Below are positions 34,296-64,000 of a stretch of DNA of 64,000 nucleotides, piece after piece. The notes under the pieces are model-generated. The model did no database searches. It had not been told where the DNA came from and worked only from the letters and a program-made list of their open reading frames with translations. Each line of letters opens with the position of its first letter. Position 1 is the stretch's first letter. The translations under genes and the position numbers were made by a program. The stretch comes from Crassostrea angulata. Taxonomy: Eukaryota. The stretch lies in the NCBI RefSeq assembly GCF_025612915.1, contig NC_069116.1:24643051-24707050 (forward strand), written 5' to 3'.

Positions 34296-37200
34296 TCAGG
34301 TAATACTGACCCTGTTGATAAGTAGAGTGACCCTGGTGATAGGTATACTGATCATGGTGAAGAGCACACATACCTTGGTGATACGTACACTCATGATCCT
34401 TGTGATAGGTATACTGTCTCAGGTGATGGTTATACTTACCCTGGTTATAGATTTTGAGATTCTGGTGTTACGTAAGCTGACCTTATAATATCTACACTTT
34501 TGTGTATACCGACTCTGGTGATGGATACATACTGACCCCTGTGATTGGCTACAGACCCTTGTGATACGTACACTGACTCTGTCGATAGGTATACTGACCC
34601 TGGTGATAGAGAATGTGATAGATATACCGGTGATAAATGTACTGACTCTTGTGATAGGTATACTGACCTTGGAGATGGGCCCTCAGACCCACGGATGCGT
34701 ACACTGACACGGCCGTTAGGTAAACTAACTCTGGTGATAGGTAATAGGTACAGTTATCCTGGTGAAAGTCTACTGATCAAGGTAATGGATGTACAAACCC
34801 TGAAGATAAGTGCACTGACTGTTGTGATAGATATACTGACTCTAATGATGGGCACACAGACCCTATTGATTCGTAAACTATTCCTGGTGATAAGTATTTA
34901 GACCCTGGTGATGGGCATACTGGCCCTGGTTATGGGTGTACAGACTCTGGTGATGGGCACACAGACTCTGGTGATACGTAGTCTGACCCTGGTGACTGGT
35001 ATGATGACACTGGTGATGGGTATACTGACACTGGTTATGGGTGTACAGACTCTGGTGATGGGCACACAGACTCTGGTGATACGTACTCTGACCTTGGTGA
35101 TAGGTATGGAGACCCTGGTGATAGGTATACTGACCCTGGTTATGGGTATCCAGACCCTGGTGATGGGCACACAAACTCTGGTGACACGTACTCTGACCCT
35201 GGTGATAGGTATGGATACCCTGGTGATGGGTATACTGACCCTGGTTATGGGTCTACAGACTCTGGTGATGGGCATACAGACTCTGGTGATACGTACTCTG
35301 ACCCTGGTGATAGGTATGGAGACCCTGGTGATGGGTATACTGGCCCTGTTATGGGTATACAGACTCTGGTGATACGTACTTTGACCCTGGTGATGGGTAT
35401 GAAGACCCTGGTGATGGGTATACTGGCCCTGGTTATGGGTGTACAGACTCTGGTGAAGGGCACACAGATTCTGGTGATACGTACTCTGACCCTGTTGATA
35501 GGTATGGAGACCTTGGTGATGGGTATACTGGCCCTGGTTATGTGTATACTGACACTTGTGATGGACACACAGACTCTGGTGATACGTACTCTGACCCTGG
35601 TGATAGGTATGAAGACCCTGGTGATGGGTATACTGACCCTGGTTATGGGTATCCAGACCCTGGTAATGGATACACAAACTCTGGTGACACGTACTCTGAC
35701 CCTTGTGATAGGTATGAAGACCCTTGTGATCGGTATACTGGCCCTGGTTATGGGTGTACAGACTCTGGTGAAGGGCACACAGACTCTGGTGATACGTACT
35801 CTGACCCTGGTGATAAGTATGAAGACCCTGGTGATGGGTATACTGGCCCTGGTTATGGGTATACATACCCTGGTGATGGGCACACAGACTCTGGTGATAC
35901 GTACTCTGACCCTGGTGATAGGTATGGAGACCCTGGTGATGGGTATACTGACCATGGTTATGGGTATCCAGACCCTGGTGATGGGCACACAAACTCTGGT
36001 GACACATACTCTGACCCTGGTGATAGGTATGGAGACCCTGGTGATGGGTATACTGGCCCTGGTTATGGGTGTACAGACTCTGGTGATGGGCACACAGACT
36101 CTGGTGATACGTACTCTGATCCTGCTGATAGGTATGGAGACCCTGGTGATGGGTATACTGACCCTGGTTATGGGTATCCAGACCCTGGTGATGGGCACAC
36201 AGACTCTGGTGACACGCACTCTGACCCTGGTGATAGGTATGGAGACCCTGGTGATTGGTATACTGGCCCTGGTTATGGGTGTACAGACCCTGGTGATGGG
36301 CACACAGACTCTGGTGATAAGCACGCTGACCCTGGTGATAGGTATGGAGACCCTGGTGATGGGTATACTGACCCTGGTTATGGGTGTACAGACCCTGGTG
36401 AAGGGCACACAGACTCTAGTGATACGTACTCTGACCCTGGTGATAGGTATGGAGACCCTGGTGATGGGTATACTGGCCCTGGTTATGGGTGTACAGACTT
36501 TGGTGATGGGCACACAGACTCTGGTGATACGTACTCTGACCCTGGTGTTAGGTATGGAGACCCTGGTGATAGGTATACTGACCCTGGTTATGGGTATCCA
36601 GACCCTGGTGATGGGCACACAAACTCTGGTGACACGTACTCTGACCCTGGTGATAGGTATGGAGACCCTGGTGATGGGTATACTGGCCCTGGTTATGGGT
36701 GTACAGACTCTGGTGAAGGGCACACAGACTCTGGTGATACGTACTCTGACCCTGGTGATAGGTATGGAGACCCTGGTGATGGGTATACTGGCCCTGTTAT
36801 GGGTATCCAGACCCTGGTGATGGGCACACAGACTCTGGTGATACGTACTTTGACCCTGGTGATGGGTATGAAGACCCTGGTGATGGGTATACTGGCCCTG
36901 GTTATGGGTGTACAGACTCTGGTGATGGGCACACAGACTCTGGTGATACGTACTCTGACCCTGCTGATAGGTATGGAGGCCCTGGTGATGGGTATACTGG
37001 CCCTGGTTATGGGTATACAGACCCTGGTGATGGGCACACAGACTCTGGTGATACGTACTCTGACCCTGGTGATAGGTATGGAGACCCTGGTGATGGGTAT
37101 ACTGACCCTGGTTATGGGTATCCAGACCCTGGTGATGGGCACACAAACTCTGGTGACACATACTCTGACCCTGGTAATAGGTATGGAGACCCTGGTGATG

Positions 37201-38290
37201 GGTATACTGGCCCTGGTTATGGGTGTACAGACTCTGATGATGGGCACACAGACTCTGGTGATACGTACTCTGACCCTGGTGATAGGTATGGAGACCCTGG
37301 TGATGGGTATACTGACCCTGGTTATGGGTATCCAGACCCTGGTGATGGGCACACAGACTCTGGTGACACATACTCTGACCCTGGTGATAGGTATGGAGAC
37401 CCTGGTGATGGGTATACTGGCCCTGGTTATGGGTGTACAGACTCTGGTGATGGGCACACAGACTCTGGTGATACGTACTCTGACCCTGGTGATAGGTATG
37501 GAGACCCTGGTGATGGGTATACTGGCCCTGTTATGGGTATACAGACCCTGGTGATGGGCACACAGACTCTGGTGATACGTACTCTGACCCTGGTGATAGG
37601 TATGGAGACCCTGGTGATAGGTATACTGGCCCTGTTATGGGTATACAGACCCTGGTGATGGGCACACAGACTCTGGTGATACGTACTCTGACCCTGGTGA
37701 TAGGTATGAAGACCCTGGTGATGGGTATACTGGCCCTGGTTATGTGTATACTGACACTTGTGATGGGCACACAGACTCTGGTGATACGTTCTCTGACCCT
37801 GGTGATAGGTATGAAGACCCTGGTGATGGGTATACTGACCCTGGTTATGGGTATCCAGACCCTGGTGATGGGCACACAGACTCTGGTGATACGTACTCTG
37901 ACCCTGGTGATAGGTATGAAGACCCTGGTGATGGGTATACTGGCCCTGGTTATGGGTGTACAGACTCTGGTGAAGGGCACACAGACCCTGGTGATACGTT
38001 CTCTGACCCTGGTGATAGGTATGGAGACCCTGGTGATTGGTATACTGACCCTGGTTATGGGTGTACAGACTCTGGTGATGGGCACACAGACTCTGGTTAT
38101 ACGTACTCTGACCCTGGTGATAGGTATGGAGACCCTGGTGATGGGTATACTAGCCCTGGTTATGGGTGTACAGACTCTGGTGATGGGCACACAGACTCTG
38201 GTGATACGTACTCTGACCCTGGAGACCCTGGTGATGGGTATACTGACCCTGGTTATGTGTATACAGACCCTGGTGATAGGTCATGTGTAG
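34296..38290 (+). repeat. Satellite array, right arm (same 21/105-bp unit, forward orientation)
   Basis: As above. Called ORFs up to 708 aa in all frames (GDGYTDP..., TLVMGIQ..., PITRVCT..., YHQGQST...) are artefacts of a stop-free unit. Recurrent 1-bp indels (ggccctgttatggg) switch frames. Confidence 0.9.
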
Positions 38291-39927
38291 ATCTACAAGG
38301 GGTCAGTGACCTGTTCACCCCTAATACCCCCCGCCCCCCCAACAAAATAGCTCCTGAGTAAAAAAAAAAGGATAATAGATTTCCTCTTTCTTCCCCTCCT
38401 AGTCTTGGATTTTTTATTTATTTTGGACTAAGGTATTTGTAGAACCTGGTGAATGGAACAATGCACGAGATAATATTGGTTTACATAAAGTCTTTATACT
38501 AGCATACATGTATGTACTGAAACCATGATATTTTGTTTAGGCACCTAGCATCGTAGCAAAGTGGGTTGAGGGCAGACTCATCCAATCTTGCCTTGAAAAA
38601 AAAAACCAACTCAAAAATACTTTTTAAATAATTGAAAATCCTAATCCGTGGGGGTAGGGGGCTAAGTGTACCTTTAACTTCAATTTCACAATTTATTTCC
38701 TCTCTTTCATTTCAAATTTTACATGGTCCCAAAAACATTGGGGGGGGGGGGGTGCAACTGTATGTTAATTTCCTTTTTTATAAGTAAATCCAAGAAAAAT
38801 ATTTGCTGCGAGAAAACGTGTGCTGGAGGGGGGGCAGTCCCGTCCCCCTGTCCCTGCCCCCATTCCAACCCCCCCCCCCCCCTCCGATGCTAAGTGCCTG
38901 TTGTTTTCCTGTAACATTGATTTTGATTGTTCTCTCAATTATTTATTTAATTTTTTGGTGTAAAATCTAATGCACATAACATTTTAATCACTTCTGATCA
39001 TATTTTTCATATAAAAATCGCATTTTTAAATTGCACATATATCAGTTCGAAGTTCCTCCAAATAGCTTTCGAATTTCCTCCCAATCGTTTACCGATCCCG
39101 ATGGAAAGTTGATTCACGCATGCGCACATCCTGGTTATAGTGCCTGGTTATGGGATATAAAAAGTACCCTATTCTATACCTCAGACTTGGCCTGGGCAAA
39201 ACAAAAGGTTGGCAGTTATTAATCTGCCAATCTCATTAAAATTTCGGGATATTTGATGGACTAGTATATTTGTATTCGCTGTAGATATTGCTGCAAAATA
39301 ATGCGTATTTGGAATTGACGATTGCAGATCTGCCCCGGCATTTATTTTGCCACGGCCCGGGTTTGCATACCCATTTTACCAAGACTCGTATTCCATACTT
39401 CTAAAACGAGGTTCTTTGTTTAAAGCAGCCATGATATTATACGAAAAAGGGTCGATCTGACTATGATGAATTTGCTTGTTGTGCAACAGTTTGCATATGA
39501 AGGGAAGTTTTGAAACATGAAAAATATATTGGTGCCGATTTTGTGAAGTAAATTGAGGCTAAATATTTCAATGCGTTGACAGTTTTCACACATGACGTTG
39601 GTGTTAGCTTGTTCTGATTTTCGTTTCGTTTTCATTATTTATGCTTTGTAACCTGGAAACTATCGTCTGTATTTCGTGATTTTTCGTATCAAATCAATCA
39701 GAGACTTCGGTAAATCAAACAGTTACGTTAACTGTTTACCTGCGCAAATTAAGCAAAATCTGATGTAGGGGTACTGAAATACAATTCATTCTATCGGTAA
39801 TTCGGCATTATCTTTTGCATAATGGTAGATTAATGCAATAGGTTTTGTTGAGATGCTCGGCATTTTCTCTAGTTTATTCAGTTTAAATAGAGTTTGATAT
39901 CGCTTACGGAAACATATAGGTATATCC

Positions 39928-40255: not shown

Positions 40256-41671
40256 TTAGCTCACCTGAGGATGGGGCAACAATGGGGGGGTCGAAGTTTA
40301 ACATGAATATATAGAGTAACTCTTAAGAAATCTTCTTCTCAGAAACTAATCGGCCAGGAAAGCTGAAACTTGTGTGGAAGCATCTTCAGGTAGTGTAGAT
40401 TCAAAGATGTGAAAATCATGACCCCTGGGGGTAGGGTGGGGCCACAATGGAGGGTTCAATTTTTTTTACATATGAATATAAAAAGTAAATCTTTAAAAAT
40501 CTTCTTCTCAGAAACTAATCGGCCAGGAAAGCTGACACTTGTGTGGATGCATCCTTAGGTAGTGAAGATTCAAATTTGTGAAAATCATGACCCCCGAGGG
40601 TAGGGTGGGGCCACAATAGGGGATCGACGTTTTACATAGGAATATATACAGTAAATCTTTAAAAATCTTCTTCTCAAAAACTAATCAGACAGGAAAGCTG
40701 ACACATGTGTGGATGCATCCTCAGGTAGTGTAAATTTTAAAGTTGTGAAAATCATGACCCCCGGGGGTAGGGTGGGGCCACAATGTGGGATCGAAATTTA
40801 ACATAAGAATATATAGAGTAAATCTTTAAAAATCTTCTTCTCAGAAACTAATTCGCCGGCAAAGCTGGAACTTGTGTGGAAGCATCCTCAGGTAGTGTAG
40901 ATTTTAAGTTGTGAAAATCATGACCCCTGGGGGTAGGTTGGGGCCACAATGGGGGATCGAAGTTTAACATATGATTATATACAAAAAAAATTTTAAAAAT
41001 CTTCTTCTCAGAAACTAATTAGCCAGGAAAGCTAAAACTTTTGTGGAAGCATACTCAGGTAGTGTAGATTCAAATTTGTGAAAACCATGACCCCTGGGGG
41101 TAGGTTTGGGCCATATTGGGAGGTCGATGTTTTACATAGGAATAAACAGAGTTATTCTTTAAAAATCTTCTTCCCAGAAACTAATCGGCCAGGAAAGCTG
41201 AAACTTGTGCGAAAGCATCCTCAGGTAGTGTAGATTCAAAGTTGTGAAAATAATGATCCCCAGGGTTAGGGTGGGGCCACAAGGGGGGGGGGGGGTCAAA
41301 GTTTAACAAAGGAATATATAGGGTAAATCTTTAAAAATCTTCTCAGAAACTAATCAGCCGGATGATTCTTTATAATTGTTAAGACTTTGGCCCCAGGACA
41401 ATTCTTTGGCCTCACGAGAAGGTTCAGAGTTTGATGTACGTTTATATCCCATATATAAACTATTGTTAGGGATCTTTTTTAGATCTGCAATACTCAACAT
41501 ATGATATGACTATAAAATCATCCTGTTAGAAAAGGGACTAATGATTATAAACATAAGAATATCCAGGGGAAAATGGATTTTATTTATACAGGATTTACAT
41601 GAATTATTGTACATTGTCCAGATAGTTTGTATTATGACTCCATTGAGATGATTTTATCATACCTCTTGTTC

Positions 41672-41921: not shown

Positions 41922-44636
41922 GAATACAAGAAAAGTTTGGTGGATCAGCAAGAAGGACCAAATGTAATAGCTGAACAGTTGAATGATGTTGGCAACATCG
42001 CAGGTGTGTCAATAACAGCAGTACTCAATGAATCAAACTTAGATAATGTAGAGTTTGACATCGATGTGACACAAATGGAAAATGAGCCAGATGAAGTTGT
42101 AGAAACTTCCTCTCTTAAGGAATTAAATCAGATTTCAAAACCAACAATTCAAAGTTCCAGTGCTTCTAAGAAATGGGGGTTTTCCTTAGAAGCTGCTTTA
42201 AGTCCTACCCTTCAGACATACAGTTCCACCTCACCAGTCTTCAGTCCTGCTTCACCAGCATATGGTTCTACCTCTGCAGGATTTTGCCCCACCTCACCAG
42301 CATACAATCCCACCTCACCAGCATACAGTCCCACCTCACCAGCATACAATCTCACCTCACCAGCATACAGTCCCACCTCACCAGCATACAATCCCACCTC
42401 ACTAGCATTTAGACCTACCTCACCAATCTTAAAAGTGTCAAAAGCATTCAATCCCACTTCACCAGCTTATCTTTCTCCATCTATCACTCTCCGTCCCACT
42501 TTTCCAGCAATCTGTCTTAACTCCATATCACAAACATACTTCTCCACTACAGCAGCAGTCTCTCAAACCGTGCCACCACAAAGTTTCACTGGCAACATAG
42601 ATCAGAAAGCAGACCAAGAATATTCAGATGATGATATTCATGTTGAATCTGACAGTGAAGATGATGATTTTGAGGTGAATGATGACAGGGGAAGTAGTTT
42701 AGAGAGAAGACCTAGACCAATAGACAAATGCTTTGATGAAAATGAAGATATTGAGGAGAATGAGAGTAGTGCTAATATAATTAAGAGATATGGAGAACAA
42801 GAAAAATCTAATTATTCAGAAGGCAGGGGTTCAGAAAAAAGAAATAGATATTTGCAAAGTGAAGATCAAAGTTTTAAAAGTAGTAACAGTCCAGTTTTAA
42901 AGAGAAGAGGAAGGAGTAGAAACAGGATATATAACAGTAGACAAGAAGAAAGAGGAGTCAGAAGTTGTGATAGGAGCTGGAATAGAAGAGACAGAAATAG
43001 TGATAGAAGCGGAGATAGTAGCACCAAAAATATGGATAGAAGCTGGGATAGTATAACCAGAAGCAGAGATAGTAGCACCGAAAGTAGGAATAGGAGCTTG
43101 GATAGAAGATCCAGAAGTAGGGATAGAATCAGGGTTTCTAGATCCAGAATAAGGGATAGAAACTGGGATAGTATAACAAGAAGCAGGGAAAGTAGCACCA
43201 AAAGTAGGAATAGAAGAGACAGAAGTCATAATGGGACCTTTGATAGAAGATCAAGAAGTGGGGATAGAAGCTGGGATAGTATAACCGGAAGCCGGGATAG
43301 TAGCACCAAAAGAAGGGATAACAGCTCCAGAAGTAGGGATAGAAGCTGTGATAGTATAACCAGAAGCAGGGATAGTAGCACCAACAGTAGGGATAGAAGC
43401 TTGGATAGTAAAACCAAAAGCAAGGATATTAGCACCAAAAGAAGGGATAGAAACTTTGGTAGAAGGGACAGAAGTAGGGTTAGAAACTTTGATAGTATAA
43501 CCAGAAGCAGGGATAGTAGCTTGGGTAGAAGGGACAGAAGTAGAGATATGAACTTGGATAGTAGAACCAGCAGTAGGGATAAAAGATCCAGTAGAGATAG
43601 CAGCAGTGATTGCAGCACCAAAAGTAGGGATAGAAGCTTGGATAGAAGAGACAGAAAATGTGATAGAAGCTCGGATAGTAGAACCAGAAGTAGGGATAGA
43701 AGCAGGGATAGTAGAACCAGAAGTAGGGATAGAAGCAGATATACAAGAACCAAAAGTAGAGACTGGAGCTGGTATAGAAGAGACAGAAGTTATGATAGGA
43801 GCTGGGATAGAAGAGACCGAAGTAGGGATAGGAGCTTGGAGAGTAGAGACAGAAGTTATGATGGGAGCTGTACTAGGAAATCAAGAAGTACGGATAGAAG
43901 CTGGGAGAGAAGAGACAGAAGCTGGGATAGGGAAAATAGAAGAAGAGAAAGAAGAGACAGAAGTAGAGATAGATGCATGGATAGCAGTAGAGATAGAAGC
44001 TGGGATAGAAGAGACAGAAGATGTGATAGAAGCTGGGATGGAAGAAGCAGAAGTAGGGATAGAAGCAGGGATATTAGAACCAGAAGTAGGGATAGAAGCA
44101 GAGATACTAGAACCAAAAGTAGAGATTGGAGCTGGTATAGAAGAGACAGAAGTTATGATAGGAGCTGGGATAGAAGAGACCAAAGTAGGGATAGGAGCTG
44201 GGAGAGTAGAGACGGAAGTAGGAACAGAAGCTGGGATAGAGAAAACAGAAGAGATAGAAGAGACAGAAGAAGGGATCAAAGCTGGGGTAGAAGAGACAGA
44301 AGCAGGAACAAAAGCTGGGATAGTAGAGTCAGACGCCGCAATAAAAGCTGGGATGAAAGAGAAAATAGAAGAGATAGAAACATTTACAGAAAATCCAAAA
44401 GAAGAGATTGGAATTGGGAAAGTAGTAAAATAGGTAGTGATAGAAGCTGGGATAGAGACAGAAGCATTAAAGATAGGAGTAAAAAATTGTATGGAAAGAA
44501 AACAAGAGGCAGGAAAAGAAAAACAAGTAAGAAAAGTGATGATAGTAAGATGCCACAGAGAACCAAAGAACCGTATAATCTGAAGGGAACTCAGTTTGAA
44601 CTAGAGCTATCAGAAGAAGGTGAGATAATGGATTAA
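41922..44636 (+). CDS. Large low-complexity exon (acidic N-part, ~10 Pol II CTD-like heptads, ~600-aa RS/RD/W region) ending in stop
   Basis: The 899-aa ORF opens immediately after an acceptor (ttatattatag|GAA) at 41921. It carries ~10 Pol II CTD-like heptads ([18 protein letters not shown]) and a long RSRDRS/DRSW-repeat region. The in-frame TAA at 44634 is followed by AATAAA at 44649. An alternative GTGAGA donor at 44620 would continue into downstream PARP4 exons. Confidence 0.6.
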
Positions 44637-47934: not shown

Positions 47935-49700
47935 ATCATCATCGGCAAAAGAACATCTCACATTTCTCATCACTATGATTAAAAACATCTCATGTTCATC
48001 ATCAGGAACATATCACATTTCTTATCACTGTCACAGGAACATCTCACATTTCACAGGAATGTATCACATTTCACAGGAACATCTCACACATTTCTCATTA
48101 CTGTAACAGTAACATCTAACATTTCTCACCACTGTTACAGGAACATATGTCACATTTCTCATCACTGTCACAGGAACATATCTCACATTTCTCATAACTA
48201 TCACAGGAACATCTCACATTTCTCACCACTGTTACAGGAACATATCTCACATTTCCCATCACTGTCACAGGAACATATCTCACATCTTCATCACTGTGAC
48301 AGGAACATCTCTCACATTTCTCATCACTGTCACAGGAACATATCTCACAAATCTCATCACTATCAAAGGAACATATCTCACATTTCTCATCACTGTAACA
48401 GGAACATCTCACTTTTTTCACCACTGTCACAGGAACATATCTCACATTTCTCGTCACTGTGACAGGAATATATCTCTTATTACTGTCATGGGAACATCTC
48501 ACATTTCTCATCACTGTCACAAAAACATCTCACATTTCTAATCACTGTCACAGAAACACATCTCACATTTCTCTTCACTGTCACAGGAACATATCACACA
48601 TTTCATGTTACTGTCACAAGGACATCTCACATTTCTCATGACTGTCACAGAAATATCTCACATTTTTCATGACCGTCATAAGAGTGTCTCACATCCCTCA
48701 TGTTATTTTTTTTATACAGTTTCTACTACACAGAACTTGAGGGAACAAATCAATATCATTGCTGCAACAAAAGCATTATATTCTTAGTTTTTACATGCAT
48801 ATTCTTAAGCAGTGGTAATAGGTCATCATGTGAAAGTGATATTGGTGAGGGATCAGTACACAGAAAGTTCATACTTTGCGTTATTCAAACATGCATGTGT
48901 ATATTTATCATATGGGTCCCTTTTGGCACTCTCACTTTCACAGGAACATATCTCACATTTCTTATCACTGTCACAGAAACATCTTTTTCTTGTTACTGTC
49001 ACAGTAACATAACGCACATTTCTTATCATTGTAACATCACTGTAACAGGAACATCTCACATTTTTCACCACTGTCACAGTAACATATCTCACATTTTTCA
49101 TTACTCACAGGAACATCTCACATTTCTCATCACTATCACAGGATCATATCTTTCATTACTGTCATGGGAAAATCTCACATTTCTCGTCACTGTCACAAAA
49201 ACGTCTCTCATTTCTCGTCACTGTCCCATTAAAGCATCTCACATTTCTCGTCACTGTCACAAAAACATCTCTCATTTCTTGTCACTGTCACAGGAACATA
49301 TCACACATTTCTCATCACTGTCACAGGAACATCTCACATTTCTCATCACTGTCACAGGAACATATCTCACATTTCATGTCACTGTCACAAGAACATCTCA
49401 CATTCCTCATGACTGTCACAGAAATATTTCACATTTTTCATCACCGTCATAAGAGTGTCTCACATTCCTCATGTTGTTTTTTTATACAGTTTCTACTACA
49501 CAGAACTTCAGAAAACAAATCAATATCATTGCTGCAACAAAAGCAATACATTCTTATTTTTTACCTGCATTTTCTTTACTTTATACTACTTAAGCAGTTG
49601 TGAATAAGTCATCATGTGAAATTGATATTGGTGAGGGATCATGCAGTACACAGAAATGTCATACTTTGCGTTATTCAAACATGCATGTGAATGTTTATCA
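47935..49700. repeat. ~33-bp minisatellite (cacaggaacatatctcacatttctcatcactgt) in two arrays, each followed by a duplicated ~230-bp unique segment
   Basis: Arrays at ~47935-48690 and ~48935-49460. Segments 48700-48930 and 49470-49700 are ~85% identical. ORFs 47992-49452 are repeat artefacts. Confidence 0.85.
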
Positions 49701-50370: not shown

Positions 50371-52086
50371 TCATCCTTAGGCAAAGGGGATTCAAAGTTG
50401 TGAACATTAAGGGTCACACCCGTTTTCAAGGGGAGATAATTAGAATTTAATGAAAAATTTCGAGAAATTTTCAAAAATCTTCTTCTCAAGAACCAGAAAG
50501 CCAGGAAAGCTGAAACTTGTGTGGAAGCATCCTCAGGTAGTGTAGATTCAAAGTTGTGAAATTCATGACCCCCGGGGGTAGGGTGGGCCCACAATGGGGG
50601 GTCGAAGTTTTACATAGGAATATATAGAGTAAATCTTTAAAAATCTTCTTCTCAGAAACTAAACAGCCAGGAAAGCTGAAACTTGTGTGGAAGCATCCTC
50701 AGGTAGTGTAGATTCAAAGTTGTGAAAATCATGACCCCCAGGGGTAGGGTGGGGCCACAATGGGGGGTTGAAGTTTTACATAGGAATATATAGAGTAAAT
50801 CTTTAAAAATCTTCTTCTCAGAAACTAAACAGCCAGGAAAGCTGAAACTTGTGTGGAAGCATCCTCAGGTAGTGTAGATTCAAAGTTGTGAAAATCATGA
50901 CCCCCGGGGGTAGGGTGGGGCCACAATGGGGGGTCGAAGTTTTACATAGGAATATATAGAGTAAATCTTTAAAAATCTTCTTCTCAGAAACTAATCAGCC
51001 AGGAAAGCTGAAACTTGTGTGGAAACATCCTCAGGTAGTGTAGATTCAAAGTTGTGAAAATCATGACCCCTGGGGGTGAGGCCACATGGGGGGGGTGTTA
51101 AAGTTTTACATAGGAATAAAGAGTAAATCTTTAAAAATCTTCTTCTCAGAAACTAATCAGCAAGATGATTCTTTATAATTGTTAAGACTTTGGCTCCAGG
51201 ACAATTCTTCGGCCTCACAAGAAGGTTCAGAGTTTGATGTAGCAAAATATCCCATATATAAACAATTGTAAAGGATCTTTTTGAGAACTGCAATACTCAA
51301 CATGTGATACGACTATAAAATTGAAGCAGGCAGCTATTTTTTCATTAGAATCTTTTTGTATTTCTGTTTTGGGTTATTGCCCTTGATTTATTGATTCTTG
51401 ATTATTTTAATTAATGCATCCACTGTTAACCAATTATTGTGATGATTATTTTTATACAATAATAAATATTCAATGTATATAAGTTGTTTTGCATAAGTAG
51501 TTTTGGGTTAGGCTGGATTAGTTTGTTTATTTTTGATTTCCAATTTTTAGATACTATGAATTATTTTAGGCCGGCACATATATAGGGACAGTGTCTATTG
51601 CTTTGTACCGAGCGACTGTTTGGGGTTAAACTTGAACAGATACGGAGAGATTGAGGGTGTTAACATCCCTGGTCTATCTAATCTTCGTGTTTTTCTAACC
51701 AACGATACAGAATGTGTGGTCATTTCTGCCCTGTATCGCATTAATACAAATGTGCAGTCATACCTGCTTGCATTGGTGGTGATTGCGGCGCCTGCGTTAG
51801 GTTGAGCTGTTGGCACAAGTGTGCGGTCATCCCTGCTTGCGTTAACGTTGGTACCTGTTGAGTTGCGTAGGTGTGCGGTCATCCCTGCCTGCGTAACGTT
51901 GAGTCCCTATATATGTGCAGGAGCGGTGATTAAAGTCTGCTCTTGTAAATATTGGCAGCAATCAGGGCTATCCGAGTTCCAAGGGGGAAAAATGGATTTT
52001 ATTTATACAGGATCTACATGTATTAATGTACATTGTCCAGATTGTATTATGACTCCATTAAGCTGACTTTATCATACCTGTTGTTC

Positions 52087-55445: not shown

Positions 55446-55601
55446 TTAACAGTATAATTTAATGAGTTCATCACTGACAGCTGAGGGGGTGAGTACGCCC
55501 AGGTCGGTGAACAGTAGAGTGATGTAGGAAGGAGGAGTGTAGTCCACCAGGGGGTGCTCCTTCATCAGATCCGGACTAGACTTCAACACTTTTGCGTGGT
55601 A
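55446..55601 (-). CDS. EIF2B1: eIF2B alpha exon 9 (terminal; [51 protein letters not shown])
   Basis: Near-identical to the human EIF2B1 C-terminus ...[36 protein letters not shown]. Acceptor cag at 55602-55604(-). Confidence 0.85.
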
Positions 55602-56262
55602 CTGAAACCAAACAAATAATAACATGGTACATGATCTGTGACACCGACACTGTGTCAATGTTGTTGTTTTTTTTAAATATGATACTGAGTAAATGTATAT
55701 TCAGTAAATTTGTCATGCACAACCACACATGGTCTGTCAAAATTCATGGAGACATTTTTCAGAAAGGAATATAACCTAGAGAATATGAACACATCCAAAT
55801 AAATGCCAAAGGGCTGATTTAGAGTTGAAGGATTTAGAAATGAATTATATTTTCTGTTATATTAATGATCATATATGTATTTGCTATCATAATATGCAAA
55901 TGGGTTTCAGACCTAAGTGCATCATTGATACATGGTAATGTGACATCATAAGTGCTGAACAAGGAGATGCTGTGTATTTTTCTACATGCAATATAGAATA
56001 CAAATAACCCAAAAATCCACCAATCAGTGGTGTCGGAAGCAAATTGAAAGTGGGGGGGGGGGGGGGGGGTGGGGGGCTATACTTCTCAAATAATCTTGAC
56101 AAGCATTAAAAAAAAGTTTTGCTAATAGTTATGTCTAACTTTGCACCCAAAAAAAAGGGGGGGGGTATAATTATACTCTATTTTAAATACAATACTCTTT
56201 CAAAAATGGAGCTGTCATGTTTTCATTTATTTTCCAGCTGCTTTAACAAATAATACGGGTAC

Positions 56263-56388
56263 CTTGAATTGATTGGGAAGATCCTGTTGGTTGAGTGGAT
56301 ATAAACGGGCAAATTTAAAACTCTCAGCCACTACATAGAATGGTTTATTCATGGCCTTTGCTGTAAGTCCCAATGTGTATGTTCCAAT
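56263..56388 (-). CDS. EIF2B1: eIF2B alpha exon 8 ([42 protein letters not shown])
   Basis: Matches human [43 protein letters not shown]. Confidence 0.85.
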
Positions 56389-57029
56389 CTACAAAAAAAC
56401 CAAAGTGAATTTAAAAGTTGATAATGTACAAGTACATTGTATAATAAAGCTGACATAAAGTTTTACATACTGGTAGACTTAGGCTCTTGACTTACTTTTA
56501 CAGTGGCATAGATTCAAGTATAATTTGTGAAGCAAGAGAAATGGATAAACAATTTTGAAAATCCTAGGTTTTTTTGTATGGTATAAAATAACATGAGGGT
56601 TGCATTTAAATTATGCATTTATACTTTATATAAATTTCAAAAGATGTTCTCTTATAGCTGAACATGACTCGTGAAAAAGCATTTTCTGCCGTGCTTCTCT
56701 TTCCTTGTTGCTATCCCTACAACCCCTATATAAGCTGCAGACCTCTGAACATTTCTCATCTATGTGGATGAACATCTTGCATCAGTTTGTTACAGTAACT
56801 GCTTTAAAATGACATGATCTTACCTTTTGCATTTATTTGAGCCAGGAGAATAGTTATATCAAAAGCATGGGTCAAATGCATTATATAAAAAAAAAATTTG
56901 CAGAAAACAAGAAATGAAAAAGCAAAGCTAAGACAACATTAAGGGTTAATACACTGTATACCAATGTGCTGGTGCTTATTTATTGACACATTCAAATTCA
57001 ATAGCAAGTGTAATTCAGACTGTAACTGC

Positions 57030-57276
57030 ACACGACGTACACTGATAACCTATAGGTTTATATGAATCACCTTGTTAATGATTCCCCCACACGACATATA
57101 AGATTCATATAAATCACCTTGTTAATGATTCCCCCACACGGTGTATAACCTATAGATTTATATAAATCACCTTGTTAATGATTCCCCCACACGGTGTATA
57201 ACCTATAGATTTATATAAATCACCTTGTTAATGATTCCCCCACATGGCGTATAACCTATAGATTTATATGAATCAC
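57030..57276 (-). repeat. Tandem array (~53-bp unit x ~4.5) at the start of EIF2B1 intron 7
   Basis: Each unit repeats the last ~20 nt of exon 7 (ggaatcattaacaag) plus the donor GTGATT. This gives ~4 pseudo-5'-splice sites directly downstream of the real one. Confidence 0.8.
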
Positions 57277-57352
57277 CTTGTTAATGATTCCTCCACTCTC
57301 TACAACACCTTCTGCTCCCACCAGCACCATGTCCACTTTCTCCATCACATAT
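57277..57352 (-). CDS. EIF2B1: eIF2B alpha exon 7 ([26 protein letters not shown])
   Basis: Matches human [27 protein letters not shown]. Donor aag|gtgatt on the minus strand. Confidence 0.8.
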
Positions 57353-57516
57353 CTTTATATCAAAATAGAAAAGAAACTTTGTTCAATCTCTGGAACTAGC
57401 ATGATTAAACATGTACATTCATTTACAAGAAACATTTAAATTTTGGAAATCTTTTACAATCTTAGAATTTCGAAGATTTGTTTGATATGTAAAAGCATTA
57501 ATCAACAAATGTTTAC

Positions 57517-57585
57517 CCAACTGCAGCATCTAGTATCAATGTTGCCGGGATCTCCATGTCTTGAAGTTCATTATATGTTTCCAAA
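57517..57585 (-). CDS. EIF2B1: eIF2B alpha exon 6 (LETYNELQDMEIPATLILDAAVG)
   Basis: Matches human LCHLNVPVTVVLDAAVG. Donor GTAAAC. Confidence 0.75.
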
Positions 57586-57788
57586 CTAATAAAAAAAGAA
57601 AGAACTTGTATAAATAATTTTATATGATTAATAATAATCTGTTAGTAAATAACCATTTTTTGCTTTTTTATGCCCTAAAAATTGATTGCAAGAAAATGGC
57701 CATGGAGTTACTTATCAATAAAAACAACAATATCAGGCATGATAAACTCTTGTACATAATGGTAGACAACGAACTAGTTGCACTGACC

Positions 57789-58217
57789 CTGACTTGTTTG
57801 GTAGAGATTCTGTCACATACACATACGGACCCTGACTTGTTTGGTAGAGATTCTGTCACATACACAAACTGACCCAGACTTGTTTGGTAGAGATTCTGTC
57901 ACATACACATACTGACCCAGACTTGTTTGGTAGAGATTCTGTCACATACACATACTGACCCTGACTTGTTTGGTAGAGATTCTGTCACATACACAAACTG
58001 ACCCTGACTTGTTTGGTAGAGATTCTGTCACATACACATACTGACCCTGACTTGTTTGGTAGAGATTCTGTCACATACACATACTGACCCTGACTTGTTT
58101 GGTAGAGATTCTGTCACATACACATACAGACCCTGACTTGTTTGGTAGAGATTCTGTCACATACAGACACTGACCCTGACTTGTTTGGTAGAGATTCTGT
58201 CACATACACATACTGAC
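57789..58217 (-). repeat. Tandem array (41-bp unit x ~10.5) at the start of EIF2B1 intron 5
   Basis: Unit gtgacagaatctctaccaaacaagtc(a/g)gg|gtcagtatgtgtat is the last 28 nt of exon 5 ([10 protein letters not shown]) plus the first 13 nt of the intron. ORF 57668-57865(-) is a read-through of these copies. Confidence 0.85.
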
Positions 58218-58330
58218 CCCGACTTGTTTGGTAGAGATTCTGTCACATACACATGGAACCGTTTGTTGGATTGCTGAGCCTCTTTCAAAACTTGAAGGAC
58301 AACTCTGGACTTTGAGTGAGTCAATATTGT
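58218..58330 (-). CDS. EIF2B1: eIF2B alpha exon 5 ([38 protein letters not shown])
   Basis: Matches human [38 protein letters not shown]. Acceptor ttttcag. Confidence 0.8.
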
Positions 58331-58742
58331 CTGAAAAGGAAATAAAACTTTGTACGATTATTCACGATAAAATATGTCTGACAGTCATTCATACTGTGGT
58401 TTCATTGATATTAAAGGATATCAATTTTTGTGGATAAAATCACAGTTTCAAGGATACGTAAATTTGTGGCCAATGACCCTATCAATACAAAATATTAGTA
58501 GATGATATTTGCAGTTCAATGAATATTTAATTTCATGGATAAACTTAAAATCGAAATCAACGAAAATTGGTATTCAACGAATATTGATGAAACCACAGTA
58601 AAACGATAGATTTCATGAAAATCACTATTGTAGAAGTGAATTGGGTCCATCGTCCTTATTATAATAACCAAAATTATTGGCACTTCTAAATCGATCACTC
58701 AAAGTATAGACTGTTAGTACATGGAATATAACTTCCTCTTAC

Positions 58743-58859
58743 TGTGCCATCTCTAATGAACTGTTGAGCTTGTTTGCCAATTTTCTGACGAGAGTTCTTG
58801 ATCTTGTTTAAGAAGACATTTCCTCTTTCTACCAATATTCGCTGACAGTCCTGAATATC
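58743..58859 (-). CDS. EIF2B1: eIF2B alpha exon 4 (DIQDCQRILVERGNVFLNKIKNSRQKIGKQAQQFIRDGT)
   Basis: Matches human [37 protein letters not shown]. Donor GTAAGA. Confidence 0.8.
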
Positions 58860-59070
58860 CTGAAAACAATAAACGATACCCCACTGATTGCTTTTATGTC
58901 ATTTTTCACCAATATATTAAATATATCAATTAACCCTGCAAGGATTAGTACTTCTTTTAATGTAAAGGGGTTTATTCCTCATCTGCAGTCCCCTAATAAT
59001 CATTAAATCTATAACTAATTGACATCATCAATATAAATCTACTAATTAGAAGAACATTAGTGATATTTAC

Positions 59071-59210
59071 AGGGTGTTCTAAACTTGTGAGGGTGATGAA
59101 GCGAAGGAAAAGCTCTCCAGCAGAGGAGATAGAAGTAGTACTGCTGTCTGTTTCTGTAAGAATCTGAATTGCCTCCTTGAGTCTGTCTCGCAATTCAGCT
59201 AATGTTTCAA
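59071..59210 (-). CDS. EIF2B1: eIF2B alpha exon 3 (...[30 protein letters not shown])
   Basis: Matches human [30 protein letters not shown]. Donor GTAAAT. Confidence 0.8.
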
Positions 59211-59331
59211 CTACAAAATAAAAAGAATGGAATAATTTATGTCATCTTATTTTGAGCTTGCACGTTACGATTGACATTTTCTCTTTAAATAATTTTCTTT
59301 TCCGAAATTTATTTTTAAACATTTGACTTAC

Positions 59332-59433
59332 TCTTATTATTCTCTAGAAAATGCAGTAATGTCTTAATGGCTGCAACAGCTACTGATAGACTTGGATCCT
59401 CTTTGACAAGTGAATTGAAGTAAGATAAAATAC
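59332..59433 (-). CDS. EIF2B1: eIF2B alpha exon 2 (GILSYFNSLVKEDPSLSVAVAAIKTLLHFLENNK)
   Basis: Matches human [34 protein letters not shown]. Donor GTAAGT. Confidence 0.8.
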
Positions 59434-59864
59434 CTGGAAAAAAAATAAATATAAAAACATACATAAAGTAAGCATGGCAAGCACTGGGTTTTCTAAATTA
59501 ATGTAAAGTCCAGTTTTATCAGATACATAATATGTCTCTAGTTTTATACAGTATACTGTGGATTGTACAAAATATATCAATACAAGAATAGTCTTAAATA
59601 CATCTATAAAGGCTTTAATATACAGTTCATGTGATGAAAATGATGCCACATATACACTATAAATGTGTTGAACATATTATATGGTCAGGTGTACATTTCA
59701 TCACCAGACTGAGACATATTTTAAAAAAAATACATTTACTTATGTTAAGTTATTCATTATAAGTATCTTAACAGTTTATAGCTATATTAGTTAACATATC
59801 TACAATTATAATCACTCTAAAATATATTTTACATAGGGCTATAAAGCACATTTGTAATATTTAC

Positions 59865-59877
59865 CGTCTCTGTCCAT
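59865..59877 (-). CDS. EIF2B1: eIF2B alpha exon 1 (ATG; MDRD + 1 nt), donor GTAAAT
   Basis: ATG is at 59877-59875 on the minus strand and the phase matches exon 2. The nine exons total 912 nt (303 aa), against 305 aa for human EIF2B1. Confidence 0.6.
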
Positions 59878-60145
59878 GTTTGCATCAGCTGTGAAATTGA
59901 AAGTATAGAATTTTGTTAGCCCGTACTTAAAATATCAGTTTAAATCTATTAATGTGTTAGTTTTTCACATAGGCTATTCAAAATATGACAAAATCTGATT
60001 CAAAAAATGTATCTTAAAAAATACTGTATCACATTCATTGACGTTTTCTGTAACTAGGAATTTAAAATATTAATACGAATAAAAATTGAATGCTTTAACT
60101 TTTTTGTTGTAAAATGAAAGTGTAACATGCGAGCTCAGAGTCAAA
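59878..60145. promoter_or_regulatory. Putative bidirectional promoter between EIF2B1 (-) and GTF2H3 (+)
   Basis: A ~270-bp intergenic gap separates the two divergent start codons. The same head-to-head pairing is known in vertebrates. Confidence 0.5.
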
Positions 60146-60152
60146 ATGACAG
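60146..60152 (+). CDS. GTF2H3: GTF2H3 candidate first coding exon (ATG ACA G, GC donor)
   Basis: Only a phase-1 mini-exon ending in G can supply the Asp codon completed by exon 2 (G|AT). The donor GCATGA is non-canonical. Confidence 0.25.
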
Positions 60153-60245
60153 GCATGATATAATTTACACACACACTATTTGTAAAGAATTGTAGACCAT
60201 TTATAATGCATGCAGCAGCTGTAAAGTGATTTTTTATTTCTTCAG

Positions 60246-60337
60246 ATAATGTGAAAAGCCAACTAATCATCATCCTTGACACAAACCCAGTATGGTGGGG
60301 CCACAAACCATCATCTCATACAAAGGCACAGCAAAAG
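60246..60337 (+). CDS. GTF2H3: TFIIH p34 exon 2 (DNVKSQLIIILDTNPVWWGHKPSSHTKAQQK)
   Basis: Matches human [28 protein letters not shown]. Donor GTAATA. Confidence 0.75.
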
Positions 60338-60457
60338 GTAATACATGTATTCCCTTGCAACAATTGTCTCCATTACTCCTTCAGTAGAATGTTTACTGGT
60401 ATATTTTGTAAGCACTGATCTGAAATGGATTTATTTTATGCAAATTTCATTACCTAG

Positions 60458-60564
60458 ATGACTTTGACAGAATGCCTGAATTCTGTAATGGTTTTTGCCC
60501 ACTCTCACTTAATGATGAACCATTCCAACAAGTTGGCCATTATTGCTGCTCACTCAGACCAAAG
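60458..60564 (+). CDS. GTF2H3: TFIIH p34 exon 3 (MTLTECLNSVMVFAHSHLMMNHSNKLAIIAAHSDQ)
   Basis: Matches human [35 protein letters not shown]. Confidence 0.8.
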
Positions 60565-61964
60565 GTATTTATGATACAATTCTTAAACTTCTAGTTGTGA
60601 CTGTTTGACTTACAGACTTGGTTGGATATTATAGATTAATGAAGCTGATCTGAAGACTGATTTATTTATTAAAAACCAGAATGCTAGAATTCAGAGAAAT
60701 CTAGATTAAAATGTGTTCTAGGTTTGCTCTTGCTGAGTCTACTTATCAATCATCTGCACATAAAAAAATGTAACTCTATGGACTATCAGCCTTATTAGTG
60801 TGCGATTTTCTCGTCTATGCTTTGTTACATCATTTTCCTTACAAATGATGATTTAGTGTGTTGATGAAACGACGTAAAATGCACTGGTCAGTGGACCTTG
60901 GCAAGAATTGGTCATATGCCAGTAGTATTTTGAGCTTTGCAATGGAAAAATTAGATTCAAAATAAAAATAATCAACTGCTAGTGGTAGCTGAATACCTAA
61001 AATGGCATCTTACAATAGTGATGATAAAGCAAAAGAAATTCTTTTTGGGTAAGCGTTGGATAGAAATCATATGATGTTTTTTAATACATAGCCAAACTAT
61101 ATCTTAAAAATCGAAACAAAATGACTTTCCCGAATTGCTACTGTGTCTTTAGTTGGAAACATCTTACATTCTTGGAAGCTATTGTTTTCAAACTTACGGT
61201 GGGCCGCGGGTTTACCCCATAAAAAATCTCGAGAGGAAACATGTCCTGAAAATTTGTTAAATCATTATTTAGGATATACAGTTCATTATATAAATTTTTT
61301 TTCAAATTTGCCTATGCAATTTTCCTACGCTATTAGTATACAATGCCGCTCTAAACTTAGTATTGTTTGTGGTGCTGTTTTGACGCTTTTCTAAGGAAAC
61401 AGATAAGAAAATGAGCATATTTCTCTTTACATCCAAGATGGGAGTTATTTTGAGAAATTGCAAATAGCTTCTAAACAATTTACACAAATTATCAACTGTT
61501 TCTATGTTTAAAGAAAACGCGATTTATAAATTATTTATGTAAAAAAAAAAAATATGAGTTCTTGCTAGATATTTTGGTATTTTATTTTATGTTTCTGATT
61601 ATTCTACCAAAAATTGTCGCATTTTCATGAGCACAACGTCAAAAAATGTTAAACCTGTTCCACTTACTCAGTCATAGCAATCATTTAAAAACTAAATTCA
61701 GGACTGCTAAAGCTACAACTTTTACAGATTTAAGGTTCAAAGGACAATGCAGATTCTTTTTACATAAATATTGTCCACAAAAATACAGAAAAGAGAAATT
61801 ATTGTACATATGCGATTAGTCATAAACAAATGTGCACAAATCAGCTTGTGCTTTTTAATAGGGCATCCTGAAGATCTATATTAAATTTATTTAATGTTTT
61901 AAAGTAGTTTTTTGTCATATTTGTTTTCTGTGCATAGATCTACTTTTGTGAATTTTGTTTTCAG

Positions 61965-62110
61965 TGTGTTTTTGTATCCAAAGAATGATCCCACAGTTCA
62001 TGTGATATCAGAAGCAGACGAAGTGACAGAAGGGAATGATGGGAAATACGAGCTCTTTAATCAGGTGGACAAGCAAATCAAAGAGGGAATTAAAAACCTG
62101 ATAGACAATT
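61965..62110 (+). CDS. GTF2H3: TFIIH p34 exon 4 (SVFLYPKNDP...GNDGKYELFNQVDKQIKEGIKNLIDN)
   Basis: Matches human SRFLYPGKNG...[27 protein letters not shown]. Donor GTAAGT. Confidence 0.75.
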
Positions 62111-62416
62111 GTAAGTTTTCTGATGGATATTGGATAAAGATTTGTATAAATTCATTACACTTATTTTGTTTTAAAACCTTCAATGTGATTATCTTACAAT
62201 GAACAACTTATTTCCCTGAATAAAATATTATCTTGTTACATTATTGTATTTAGGTCTGTTTTGATATTATAAGAGCTGGCATTTTTTAGTGCTTGCTGAA
62301 CAATCAATTGAATATTGAGTCAAAATCAACGTTCATTTTATTCTGAATAATAGCAGGTACATGTATGCTATAAAAACAGAATTGCATTTAAAAAGACGTA
62401 TGTTCATTTTTTTCAG

Positions 62417-62539
62417 GTATGAATGGACAACTCTATCCAGACTCGCTTGTTGCTGGTGCTTTGGCCATGGCTCTGTGTCGTATCCTTGGAATATTTTCAG
62501 CAAAGTTGCAATATTGTTTTGAGCATAATATTAATTACT
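62417..62539 (+). CDS. GTF2H3: TFIIH p34 exon 5a (CMNGQLYPDSLVAGALAMALCRIL...); 3' end uncertain
   Basis: Matches human [20 protein letters not shown]. The first usable GT donor (GTAAAT at 62540) adds ~18 aa absent in vertebrates. Confidence 0.4.
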
Positions 62540-62601
62540 GTAAATGCAATTACACATGTACATTTTACTTGCTAGGACATTGTGATTCTTAACTTAAAAA
62601 G

Positions 62602-62660
62602 ATATCAACAAGACAGAGAGGAGTCATGAAGAAGTGGGGATTCTTTCCAGTCGAATTCTG
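62602..62660 (+). CDS. GTF2H3: TFIIH p34 exon 5b (INKTERSHEEVGILSSRIL)
   Basis: Matches human MNKEVKDNQEMKSRIL. Donor GTAAGT. Confidence 0.6.
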
Positions 62661-62810
62661 GTAAGTTTCAGAACATGAACTTTTAAAAAAAATATCTTAT
62701 ACATGTACTGTTTTCATTGAAACAATGACTGATTACCATCAAAACCTAAATTGTTTACACTCCAAATTATATATATGCATAAGAAATCTAAGATTATTTT
62801 TGTGTTCTAG

Positions 62811-62885
62811 GTGATCAAAGGGTCTGAGGACAACACAGAGCAATATATGAATTTAATGAATGCCGTTTTTACAGCCCAGAAACAG
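62811..62885 (+). CDS. GTF2H3: TFIIH p34 exon 6 (VIKGSEDNTEQYMNLMNAVFTAQKQ); GC-AG intron follows
   Basis: Matches human [25 protein letters not shown]. Only the donor CAG|GCATGT at 62886 keeps frame into exon 7. Confidence 0.75.
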
Positions 62886-62982
62886 GCATGTACCATACAT
62901 ATTCACATAACTTACAACCTAAATGCATTGAGATTGATAAAAGAATTGTTTTGAACAAGTGGTGTTTCTTTTCTCTCTGTAG

Positions 62983-63036
62983 AATGTGGTAATCGATGCC
63001 TGTGTTTTGGATAATGAATCAGGACTCCTGCAACAG
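62983..63036 (+). CDS. GTF2H3: TFIIH p34 exon 7 (NVVIDACVLDNESGLLQQ)
   Basis: Matches human NILIDACVLDSDSGLLQQ. Confidence 0.85.
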
Positions 63037-63138
63037 GTTAAGAAAAGCTGGCTCATATTTGAAAAATTGTTTTGTAAAAATGCAGTGATTTATTACTTTT
63101 TTGTAGAATTTACTTAGTGAACACCAGTATCATTTCAG

Positions 63139-63207
63139 GCTTGTGATATAACAGGGGGCATATATTTGAAGATTCCTCAAATGAAAGGACTGTTGCAGTA
63201 CTTGATG
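63139..63207 (+). CDS. GTF2H3: TFIIH p34 exon 8 ([23 protein letters not shown])
   Basis: Matches human [23 protein letters not shown]. Confidence 0.85.
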
Positions 63208-63579
63208 GTTTGTTAGATTTTTTTCTTTATTTGCTTTATGATTTTAAGACTGCAACTTAAATCTCTAATAAACGATGAACCTCCATGCACATGTTGCCCA
63301 AAAAATTTTAATTACACATCAGTCACCAGTAATTTTCTTATTTGACCACTGAAAAAATGTAAAGAAATTGTAAGCAAACTTTAATTTTGCATCGTTATAC
63401 TCTTTTCTTCTAATGTTAAAAGCACCAAATATTGAAATTTTTATCATACTCTCTTTGAATTTGTCAATTTTTTTTTTTAATATCCACATATGATACAATC
63501 TTAATCTACATCAACATGATTATGTGTTTTGAAATAGCATGATTGCAGAAATAGATAATGAATAAATTACATTTTTCAG

Positions 63580-63715
63580 TGGGTTTTCCTTCCCGACCCC
63601 CTTGAGAGAGCAAAGCTGACCCTTCCTCCCAAAGTCCAGGTGGACTACAGAGCTGCATGCTTCTGTCACCGCAACCTCATAGATATCGGATACGTGTGTT
63701 CTGTCTGTCTCTCAA
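63580..63715 (+). CDS. GTF2H3: TFIIH p34 exon 9 ([45 protein letters not shown]; zinc-binding)
   Basis: Matches human [45 protein letters not shown]. Confidence 0.9.
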
Positions 63716-63720
63716 GTAAG

Positions 63721-63723
<3 letters not shown>

Positions 63724-63779
<56 letters not shown>
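63724..63779. repeat. (CT)n microsatellite in GTF2H3 intron
   Basis: About 28 CT repeats. Confidence 0.95.
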
Positions 63780-63783
<4 letters not shown>

Positions 63784-63870
63784 CCAATTTAAATGATATG
63801 TAGTATAATTGGGTTTAAATACTTTGTCCAGTATATTAACATAAGAATTATTTAAATCCATTTATTGTAG

Positions 63871-63907
63871 TATTTTGTGCCTTCAGCCCAATTTGTGGAA
63901 CATGTCA
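63871..63907 (+). CDS. GTF2H3: TFIIH p34 exon 10 (IFCAFSPICGTCQ), gene continues beyond window
   Basis: Matches human IFCNFSPICTTCE. Donor GTAAGT. Confidence 0.8.
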
Positions 63908-64000
63908 GTAAGTAATTAGTAGTTTATATCTAAGATCTTCATTTATTAACGATAAGATACATGTACATGTAACTCTGACTATACATAGAAGACCCCCCTT

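Follow-up and report, generated by a model that had tools for sequence, protein, structure and literature searches.

The window, that is, the whole stretch of 64,000 nucleotides of Crassostrea angulata DNA that was analysed, carries on its minus strand the gene EIF2B1, two introns of which open with tandem arrays. The exons were first located by tblastn with human EIF2B1 (an approximate query sequence that served only as a seed), which yielded eight colinear minus-strand exons, and the identity of the gene was settled with database proteins: the 298 residues encoded by exons 2-9 are 100% identical to the Crassostrea (Magallana) gigas / C. angulata eIF2B-alpha XP_011448627.2, and the exon model is clean under canonical splice sites. 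When the ATG exon is counted, the array-bearing exons are coding exons 5 and 7, in agreement with the gene assignment and the numbering of a preliminary description of this DNA. The gene model is as follows (in donor sites, here and below, the slash separates exon and intron).

55446..59888, minus strand, EIF2B1 coding region, nine coding exons
~60246-62113, minus strand, alternative 5'UTR exons, upstream of the ATG exon
59888-59865, minus strand, ATG exon, 24 nt
59433-59332, minus strand, coding exon 2
59210-59071, minus strand, coding exon 3
58859-58743, minus strand, coding exon 4
58218..58330, minus strand, coding exon 5, 113 nt, authentic donor GGG/GTCAGT with intron base 1 at 58217
57586..58217, minus strand, intron 5, 632 nt, 430 nt (68%) of which belong to intronic copies of array 1
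57517..57585, minus strand, exon 6, also backed by transcript junctions
57277..57352, minus strand, coding exon 7, 76 nt, authentic donor AAG/GTGATT, from gene model and transcripts
56389..57276, minus strand, intron 7, 888 nt, array 2 being its first ~232 nt
56388-56263, minus strand, exon 8
55601-55446, minus strand, exon 9

Upstream, EIF2B1 is arranged head-to-head with a Tfb4/GTF2H3 gene (exons 61963-63907, plus strand; region 59888-64000). Ten Logan contigs (L009-L018) contain EIF2B1 and Tfb4/GTF2H3 mRNAs that are fused via the upstream exons 60579-60456 and 60337-60246 and join exon 2 at 59423, 10 nt within this exon, which points to divergent transcripts that overlap or to alternative 5'UTR exons.

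Both arrays are present where the preliminary description had placed them, and they are far above chance. According to TRF, array 1 (57782-58254) has a period of 43, 11.0 copies, 96% matches and a score of 883, and array 2 (57045-57296) has a period of 53, 4.9 copies, 90% matches and a score of 399. TRF and an in-register print of the copies agree that both introns open with tandem copies of the preceding exon end plus its 5' splice site, and that the genuine full exon is located at the upstream edge of the array, as had been proposed. The dimensions of array 1 had to be corrected: instead of about 10.5 copies of a 41-bp unit composed of 28 exonic and 13 intronic nucleotides, the in-register print of the minus strand gives a unit of 43 nt, in which 37 nt from the end of exon 5 (36/37 identical) are combined with the six intron nucleotides GTCAGT, and 10 intronic copies. 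The exonic part, ATGTGTATGTGACAGAATCTCTACCAAACAAGTCGGG, is followed by GTCAGT and includes a TG-rich run, ATGTGTATGTG; after the exon copy and the 10 full intronic copies, a terminal GTCAGT enters the unique intron sequence GCAACTAG..., so that array 1 contains 11 donor-like sites. The unit of array 2 was confirmed as described, with 53 nt, of which 20 come from the end of exon 7 (19/20 identical) and 33 from the intron, starting from GTGATT. Its intronic part consists of three full copies, a fourth copy of 47 nt and a partial copy of 26 nt, and it has five AAG/GTGATT donors. The positions of the copies and donors are:

58254-58218, minus strand, array 1, exon copy (last 37 nt of exon 5)
58217-57788, minus strand, array 1, ten intronic copies
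57787-57782, minus strand, array 1, terminal GTCAGT
58217 - 43 x (k - 1) for k = 1 to 11, minus strand, array 1, intron base 1 of donor k
57296-57277, minus strand, array 2, exon copy (last 20 nt of exon 7)
57276-57224, 57223-57171, 57170-57118 and 57117-57071 (47 nt), minus strand, array 2, intronic copies
57070-57045, minus strand, array 2, partial copy
57276, 57223, 57170, 57117 and 57070, minus strand, array 2, intron base 1 of the donors

The strings of identical decoy donors that had been reported thus do exist as strings of pseudo-donors; in array 1, however, they are only near-identical, as its 10 decoys comprise six AGG/GTCAGT, two TGG/GTCAGT, one GTCTGT and one GTCCGT. A transposon or dispersed satellite was considered as a source of the arrays and was rejected: the exon end itself forms the unit, and elsewhere in the window only 12-nt chance matches to it were found.

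A second haplotype is available in the independent M. gigas assembly GCA_963853765.1 (locus L001), which is 93-95% identical to the window in the introns, and the comparison of array lengths is thus one between two haplotypes. Both arrays were found in L001, in states other than those of the window. Array 1 has 10 extra copies in the window and one in L001, that is, 11 versus two donor-like sites, and the single extra copy of L001 is 51 nt long, has an 8-nt insertion of its own and is followed by a deletion of about 100 nt. Array 2 has four extra copies in the window versus five, of different variants, in L001. Some adjacent copies are identical within a haplotype (copies 2 and 3 in the window, copies 4 and 5 in L001), indicating that turnover is ongoing. 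The differences in copy number between the haplotypes, together with the identical neighbours, are what slippage or unequal exchange predicts, and the proposal of the preliminary description that the arrays originated by local tandem amplification, via slippage or unequal crossing-over, is thereby supported. A metagenome search with the sequence of the exon-5 end and unit for further oyster haplotypes returned 0 matches. It should also be mentioned that, compared to the window, an additional segment of about 1.36 kb is present in intron 6 of L001 (L001 3878-5239); it includes a 121-bp repeat in two copies and is probably an insertion polymorphism.

In Crassostrea virginica, Ostrea edulis and the two Saccostrea species S. 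echinata and S. cucullata, both introns occur at the same positions with a single donor each, and repeats like those of array 1 or array 2 were absent from the matching intron positions in all four of these other oysters; the comparison with related species had been recommended from the outset. The occurrence of both arrays in L001 and their absence from the four other oysters argue that they are young polymorphic minisatellites and not artefacts. The arrays are therefore real, lineage-specific and polymorphic in copy number, and we consider it very probable that they are young minisatellites (VNTRs) with a first monomer that extends over the exon/intron boundary. It could be objected that a short duplication was spuriously expanded during assembly, since tandem repeats are error-prone in assemblies and the copy number of array 1 is 5-fold different between the two assemblies. 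However, the independent assembly, in which both arrays recur, clearly represents another haplotype (flanks 93-95% identical), and the absence of the arrays from such an assembly was what had been named as the sign of an artefact. In addition, the copies are not all identical and bear their own distinct substitutions and indels, and the 8-nt insertion and the flanking deletion show that L001 carries a different allele instead of a collapsed version of the window array. An assembly artefact is thus hardly credible.

Each of the two minisatellites would go back to a short tandem duplication in which the exon end and the 5' splice site were included by chance. The founding duplication would have comprised 37 nt of exon and 6 nt of intron in array 1, and about 20 nt of exon and 33 nt of intron in array 2. 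At the founding junction of array 2 there is a microhomology of three nucleotides, GTG, between intron (...CGTCGTGTG/CAG) and exon (...GAGAGTG/GAGG; here the slash marks the junction), and no microhomology was found at the founding junction of array 1. Replication slippage or unequal exchange would then have amplified both arrays and would keep turning them over. The gain of new introns by tandem duplication was rejected as an explanation, because introns 5 and 7 are ancestral, being located at the same positions in the four other oysters. Intron gain via the duplication of AGGT-containing exon sequence (Hellsten 2011, PMC3265369; PMC4974935) resembles the oyster case in that extra splice signals are generated and a copy of exon sequence lies inside an intron, but in the oyster no intron was gained and an existing one was only lengthened.

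The exon copy itself also varies. Position 58220 of the window (minus strand), which is position -3 of the exon-5 donor and the third base of a Ser codon, is triallelic among individuals: 11 transcripts and all outgroups have A (TCA), the window and contig L009 have G (TCG), and contig L015 has T (TCT). The T is also present in the intronic copies 7-8 of array 1 in the window. This pattern may have arisen by exchange of sequence between exonic and intronic copies, but it could equally well be due to ordinary polymorphism, as the site is four-fold degenerate and the species very diverse. The exon-derived portion of the unit is probably involved in array turnover.

Which donors are used was studied with 14 Logan contigs from separate sequencing runs, assembled contigs that reveal the dominant isoform only, beside which minor decoy use with subsequent NMD may occur. 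Thirteen of the 14 are spliced mRNAs that are 98.1-98.7% identical to the coding sequence of the window without gaps, and the remaining contig (95.4% identical) is probably derived from a sister species. Without exception (14/14), the first donor is used both for the exon 5/exon 6 junction and for the exon 7/exon 8 junction, and every contig contains a single copy of each unit. Contig L009, which carries the window-type G at position -3 and matches the window in exons 4-5 with 100% identity, also uses the first donor.

The choice of the first donor cannot be attributed to its strength. With approximate consensus weights, the authentic exon-5 donor GGG/GTCAGT scores 1.27 bits versus 2.14 bits for the six AGG/GTCAGT decoys, the exon-7 donor and its decoys do not differ between -20 and +33, and the pseudo-donors of both arrays score at least as high as the authentic site; donor strength as discriminator was therefore rejected, the authentic site being not stronger at exon 5 and equal at exon 7. 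Masking of the decoys by RNA structure was rejected as well, as the RNA of the exon-5 end and the array folds worse than 100/100 shuffled sequences (z = +4.6), that is, the region is less structured than every one of them. With strength and structure ruled out, position is left as the explanation. As the upstream copy keeps the entire exon, a correct mRNA would require only that the most upstream donor is used, and this is exactly what the assembled transcripts show; the downstream copies would then be silent pseudo-donors within the intron. The first site might win by a 5'-to-3' positional rule (oriented scanning, first-come commitment), to which exon definition may contribute.

The consequences of decoy use were deduced by splicing each donor-like site of the window allele in silico to the next exon. 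Premature stops resulted from 10/10 decoys of array 1 and 4/4 decoys of array 2. With donors 3-11 of array 1 the product ends in ...KQVRVSVCM before the stop, the product of donor 2 has a different stop-terminated tail, and donors 2-5 of array 2 all lead to one shared tail with a premature stop. The earlier suggestion that use of the third intron-5 copy would add 123 nt in frame did not hold, because three units amount to 129 nt and contain an in-frame TGA. No functional protein is possible from any decoy of the window allele. Because every decoy leads to a premature stop, decoy-spliced transcripts of this allele would be expected to be removed by NMD, and the arrays would therefore be near-neutral intron expansions. 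The situation is different in L001, in which the 51-nt extra unit (L001 3656-3706) is in frame and stop-free, and its donor AGG/GTAGGG would insert 17 amino acids. This insertion isoform was absent among the 14 assembled transcripts and in protein searches. An alternative 5' splice-site module for the production of protein isoforms was thus rejected, as the window decoys all give stops and the in-frame form of L001 is unseen in transcripts and proteins. Proteins derived from read-through or decoy use were also searched for in a protein collection with a 181-aa query, and no truncated or tail-bearing cluster was found, a weak negative, as NMD and graph pruning would hide such products. A further query of 96 aa (exons 4-5 plus the read-through tail) gave 10 index candidates and missed the known oyster protein itself.

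The arrays belong to a known class, namely minisatellites with a first monomer across an exon-intron boundary, which is represented by the human genes F7, CBS, IFI6, LMNB2 and PDGF; new are the phylum and the presence of two arrays in one gene. [quoted passage not shown] Oyster literature on minisatellites at splice sites was not found.

The nearest system is the 37-bp VNTR in IVS7 of human F7, for which 50 constructs have shown that the most upstream donor is chosen and the pseudo-sites are silent, a result that was explained by 'oriented scanning' and exon definition (Borensztajn et al. 2006, PMC1557585). As in F7, the first monomer of the oyster arrays spans the boundary, identical pseudo-donors come after the authentic donor, splicing takes place at the most upstream site, no masking RNA structure was found, and the copy number is polymorphic, with 5-9 repeats in F7 (PMC1557585). 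In contrast, the F7 unit contains 4 nt of exon and 33 nt of intron, whereas the oyster units contain 37+6 and 20+33 nt, and F7 was tested experimentally, while donor choice in the oyster, a mollusc with two such arrays in one gene, was deduced from assembled transcripts. From the transcripts and the analogy with F7 we infer that the positional rule demonstrated in mammalian cells would also govern oyster EIF2B1.

Human CBS offers a second parallel. Its VNTR c.1444_1467+7(16_21) at exon 13/intron 13 has a unit of 31 bp with 24 nt of exon and 7 nt of intron (PMC2630376) and thus resembles array 1 in that the unit consists mainly of the exon end with a few intron bases (24+7 versus 37+6), each unit contains a donor, and the copy number is polymorphic, with 15-21 copies. 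Like oyster EIF2B1, CBS contains two junction duplications, the second one being 844ins68 at intron 7/exon 8 (PMC2630376). Unlike in the oyster transcripts, two pseudo-sites are reported to be used in CBS IVS13 (15-20 repeats; PMC1557585). As cited in PMC2630376, the CBS VNTR has been associated with enzyme activity (Lievers 2001). In IFI6/6-16 two of 25 pseudo-sites are used, and LMNB2 and PDGF share this architecture (PMC1557585). IFI6 intron 2, LMNB2 and PDGF intron 4 are like the oyster introns in having a reiterated donor within the intron and in using the first site alone or the first and the next two, but they are vertebrate genes with units of up to 81-100 bp and different copy numbers.

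Junction-spanning arrays were then sought in EIF2B1 of eight bivalves, considering arrays with a period of at least 10 and at least 2.5 copies, 16 of which were found. A third independent junction-spanning case is present in O. edulis at intron 8/exon 9 (L006 24509-25058), where a 55-bp unit is repeated 10 times. In this unit, ~23 nt from the end of intron 8 (...TTACAG; acceptor tgtttatataatatctgttacag) precede the first 32 nt of exon 9, and the genuine exon 9 lies at the downstream edge of the array. Like the M. gigas arrays, it is a junction-spanning minisatellite in EIF2B1 with the genuine exon at its edge and decoys that give stops; unlike them, it is a mirror image that contains the acceptor and the exon start, its exon lies downstream, and one decoy is part of an annotated isoform. 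The C-terminus of the RefSeq isoform X2 XP_056019972.1, ...SSPDVYIISVTVPRQYSDV followed by the stop, is obtained only by splicing to decoy acceptor 2 (L006 24587-24667), and according to the gene model exon 8 would run into CCTGATGTTTATAT in this annotated isoform. Decoys in such arrays may thus not always be silent. Two further arrays were rejected as junction-spanning: a 30-bp array in three copies beside exon 5 of O. edulis lies entirely within intron 4, and an 88-bp GT-rich array in four copies in C. virginica (TGTGGGGTTGTTGTTG...; L005 5979-6348) stops exactly at the polypyrimidine tract/acceptor of exon 9 and contains no exon sequence.

The occurrence of two arrays in one gene had been taken as a sign of something special at junctions, and it might be argued that exon/5' splice-site junctions are hot spots of tandem duplication in oysters, for example because of breaks associated with transcription or splicing, or because of slippage-prone GT-rich sequence. 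The only two sizeable arrays of the gene both begin exactly at a donor junction; under random placement in M. gigas alone, the probability that both arrays lie on a junction is about 0.07, and that both lie on the donor side about 0.02. The third junction-spanning array in O. edulis EIF2B1 and the TG-rich run at the exon-5 end are also in line with hot spots. However, when the eight bivalve orthologues with their 16 arrays were pooled, 2.58 junction-spanning arrays were expected between exon 2 and exon 9 under random placement versus three observed (P(>=3) = 0.50), so that random placement suffices. In addition, the units bear no relation to each other in their geometry (37+6, 20+33, and 23+32 at the acceptor), as random breakpoints would yield, and the case was chosen from a scan of many windows, to which multiple testing applies. 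Compact genes, a minisatellite-rich genome and the selection of the case from such a scan make a special mechanism at junctions unnecessary, and we consider the existence of hot spots highly improbable.

Alternatively, the arrays could be functional: the pseudo-donors could send a copy-number-dependent share of EIF2B1 transcripts to NMD or to an insertion isoform, so that the VNTR length would tune eIF2B-alpha. Several observations would fit with this: every decoy of the window yields a premature stop, the second donor of L001 is in frame and stop-free (+17 aa), the copy numbers of the two alleles are strongly different (11 versus two donor-like sites), two pseudo-sites are used in human IFI6 and CBS (PMC1557585), and a decoy acceptor is part of the annotated isoform X2 of O. 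edulis. Nevertheless, the extra unit was found in 0/14 assembled transcripts, truncated or tail-bearing protein forms no cluster of its own in the collection (a weak negative), the pseudo-sites of F7 are silent (PMC1557585), and the absence of the arrays from four other oysters is not what would be expected of a conserved regulatory device. Functional arrays are therefore very unlikely, and the reading as young minisatellites that are near-neutral within their introns is preferred. A more general form would be that junction-spanning minisatellites are systematic in oyster genes, that their length sets the loss of pre-mRNA to decoys and NMD, and that their turnover reaches the coding sequence. 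This leans on the three independent EIF2B1 cases in two species, on donor as well as acceptor sides, while the reach into coding sequence is drawn from the triallelic -3 site with its T that is also present in intronic copies. We regard this generalization as very unlikely; if it were true, the VNTR length would be a heritable expression-level variant of a core translation and stress-response factor.

The current understanding of splicing or of repeats is unchanged by the EIF2B1 arrays. They are of interest in several other respects: they offer a natural, non-mammalian test of how the spliceosome chooses among as many as 11 equivalent donors; the authentic exon-5 site of the window allele is slightly weaker than most decoys and yet the matching transcript is correctly spliced, which would extend the upstream-first behaviour of F7 to a mollusc; they provide two adjacent, highly polymorphic VNTR markers for a commercially important oyster; and they indicate that exon ends can enter minisatellite turnover. 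In addition, they call for caution in annotation and RNA-seq alignment, as reads are ambiguous over identical units and a RefSeq isoform of O. edulis was built on a decoy acceptor.

Other repeats and genes are present in the window. A giant inverted duplication of 21-bp satellite arrays extends over 30234-38361, with the unique flanks mirrored too; about 187 copies (30314-34242) are followed by about 158 inverted ones (34883-38281), the latter with a higher-order period of 105 bp, and the satellite has several stop-free frames on both strands with a YTDPGDG-like heptad. A satellite of 166/167 bp forms two arrays in the same orientation that are ~88% identical (40268-41359, 6.5 copies; 50465-51161, 4.2 copies), and by its unit length and its occurrence in a bivalve it may be compared to the Cg170/HindIII oyster satellite. 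Two long arrays at 48003-49472 have a 31-33-bp unit, CAGGAACATATCTCACATTTCTCATCACTGTCA, with higher-order periods of 64 and 97 bp. EIF2B1 is neighboured by a large PARP-like gene, and at 41937-44636 (plus strand) there is an open frame of 899 aa with RNA polymerase II CTD-like heptads (Pfam PF05001, E = 1.6e-10) that continues into a long Arg/Ser/Asp-rich region of 33-bp repeats (TRF 42626-44379) and probably corresponds to a large coding exon from a neighbouring gene.
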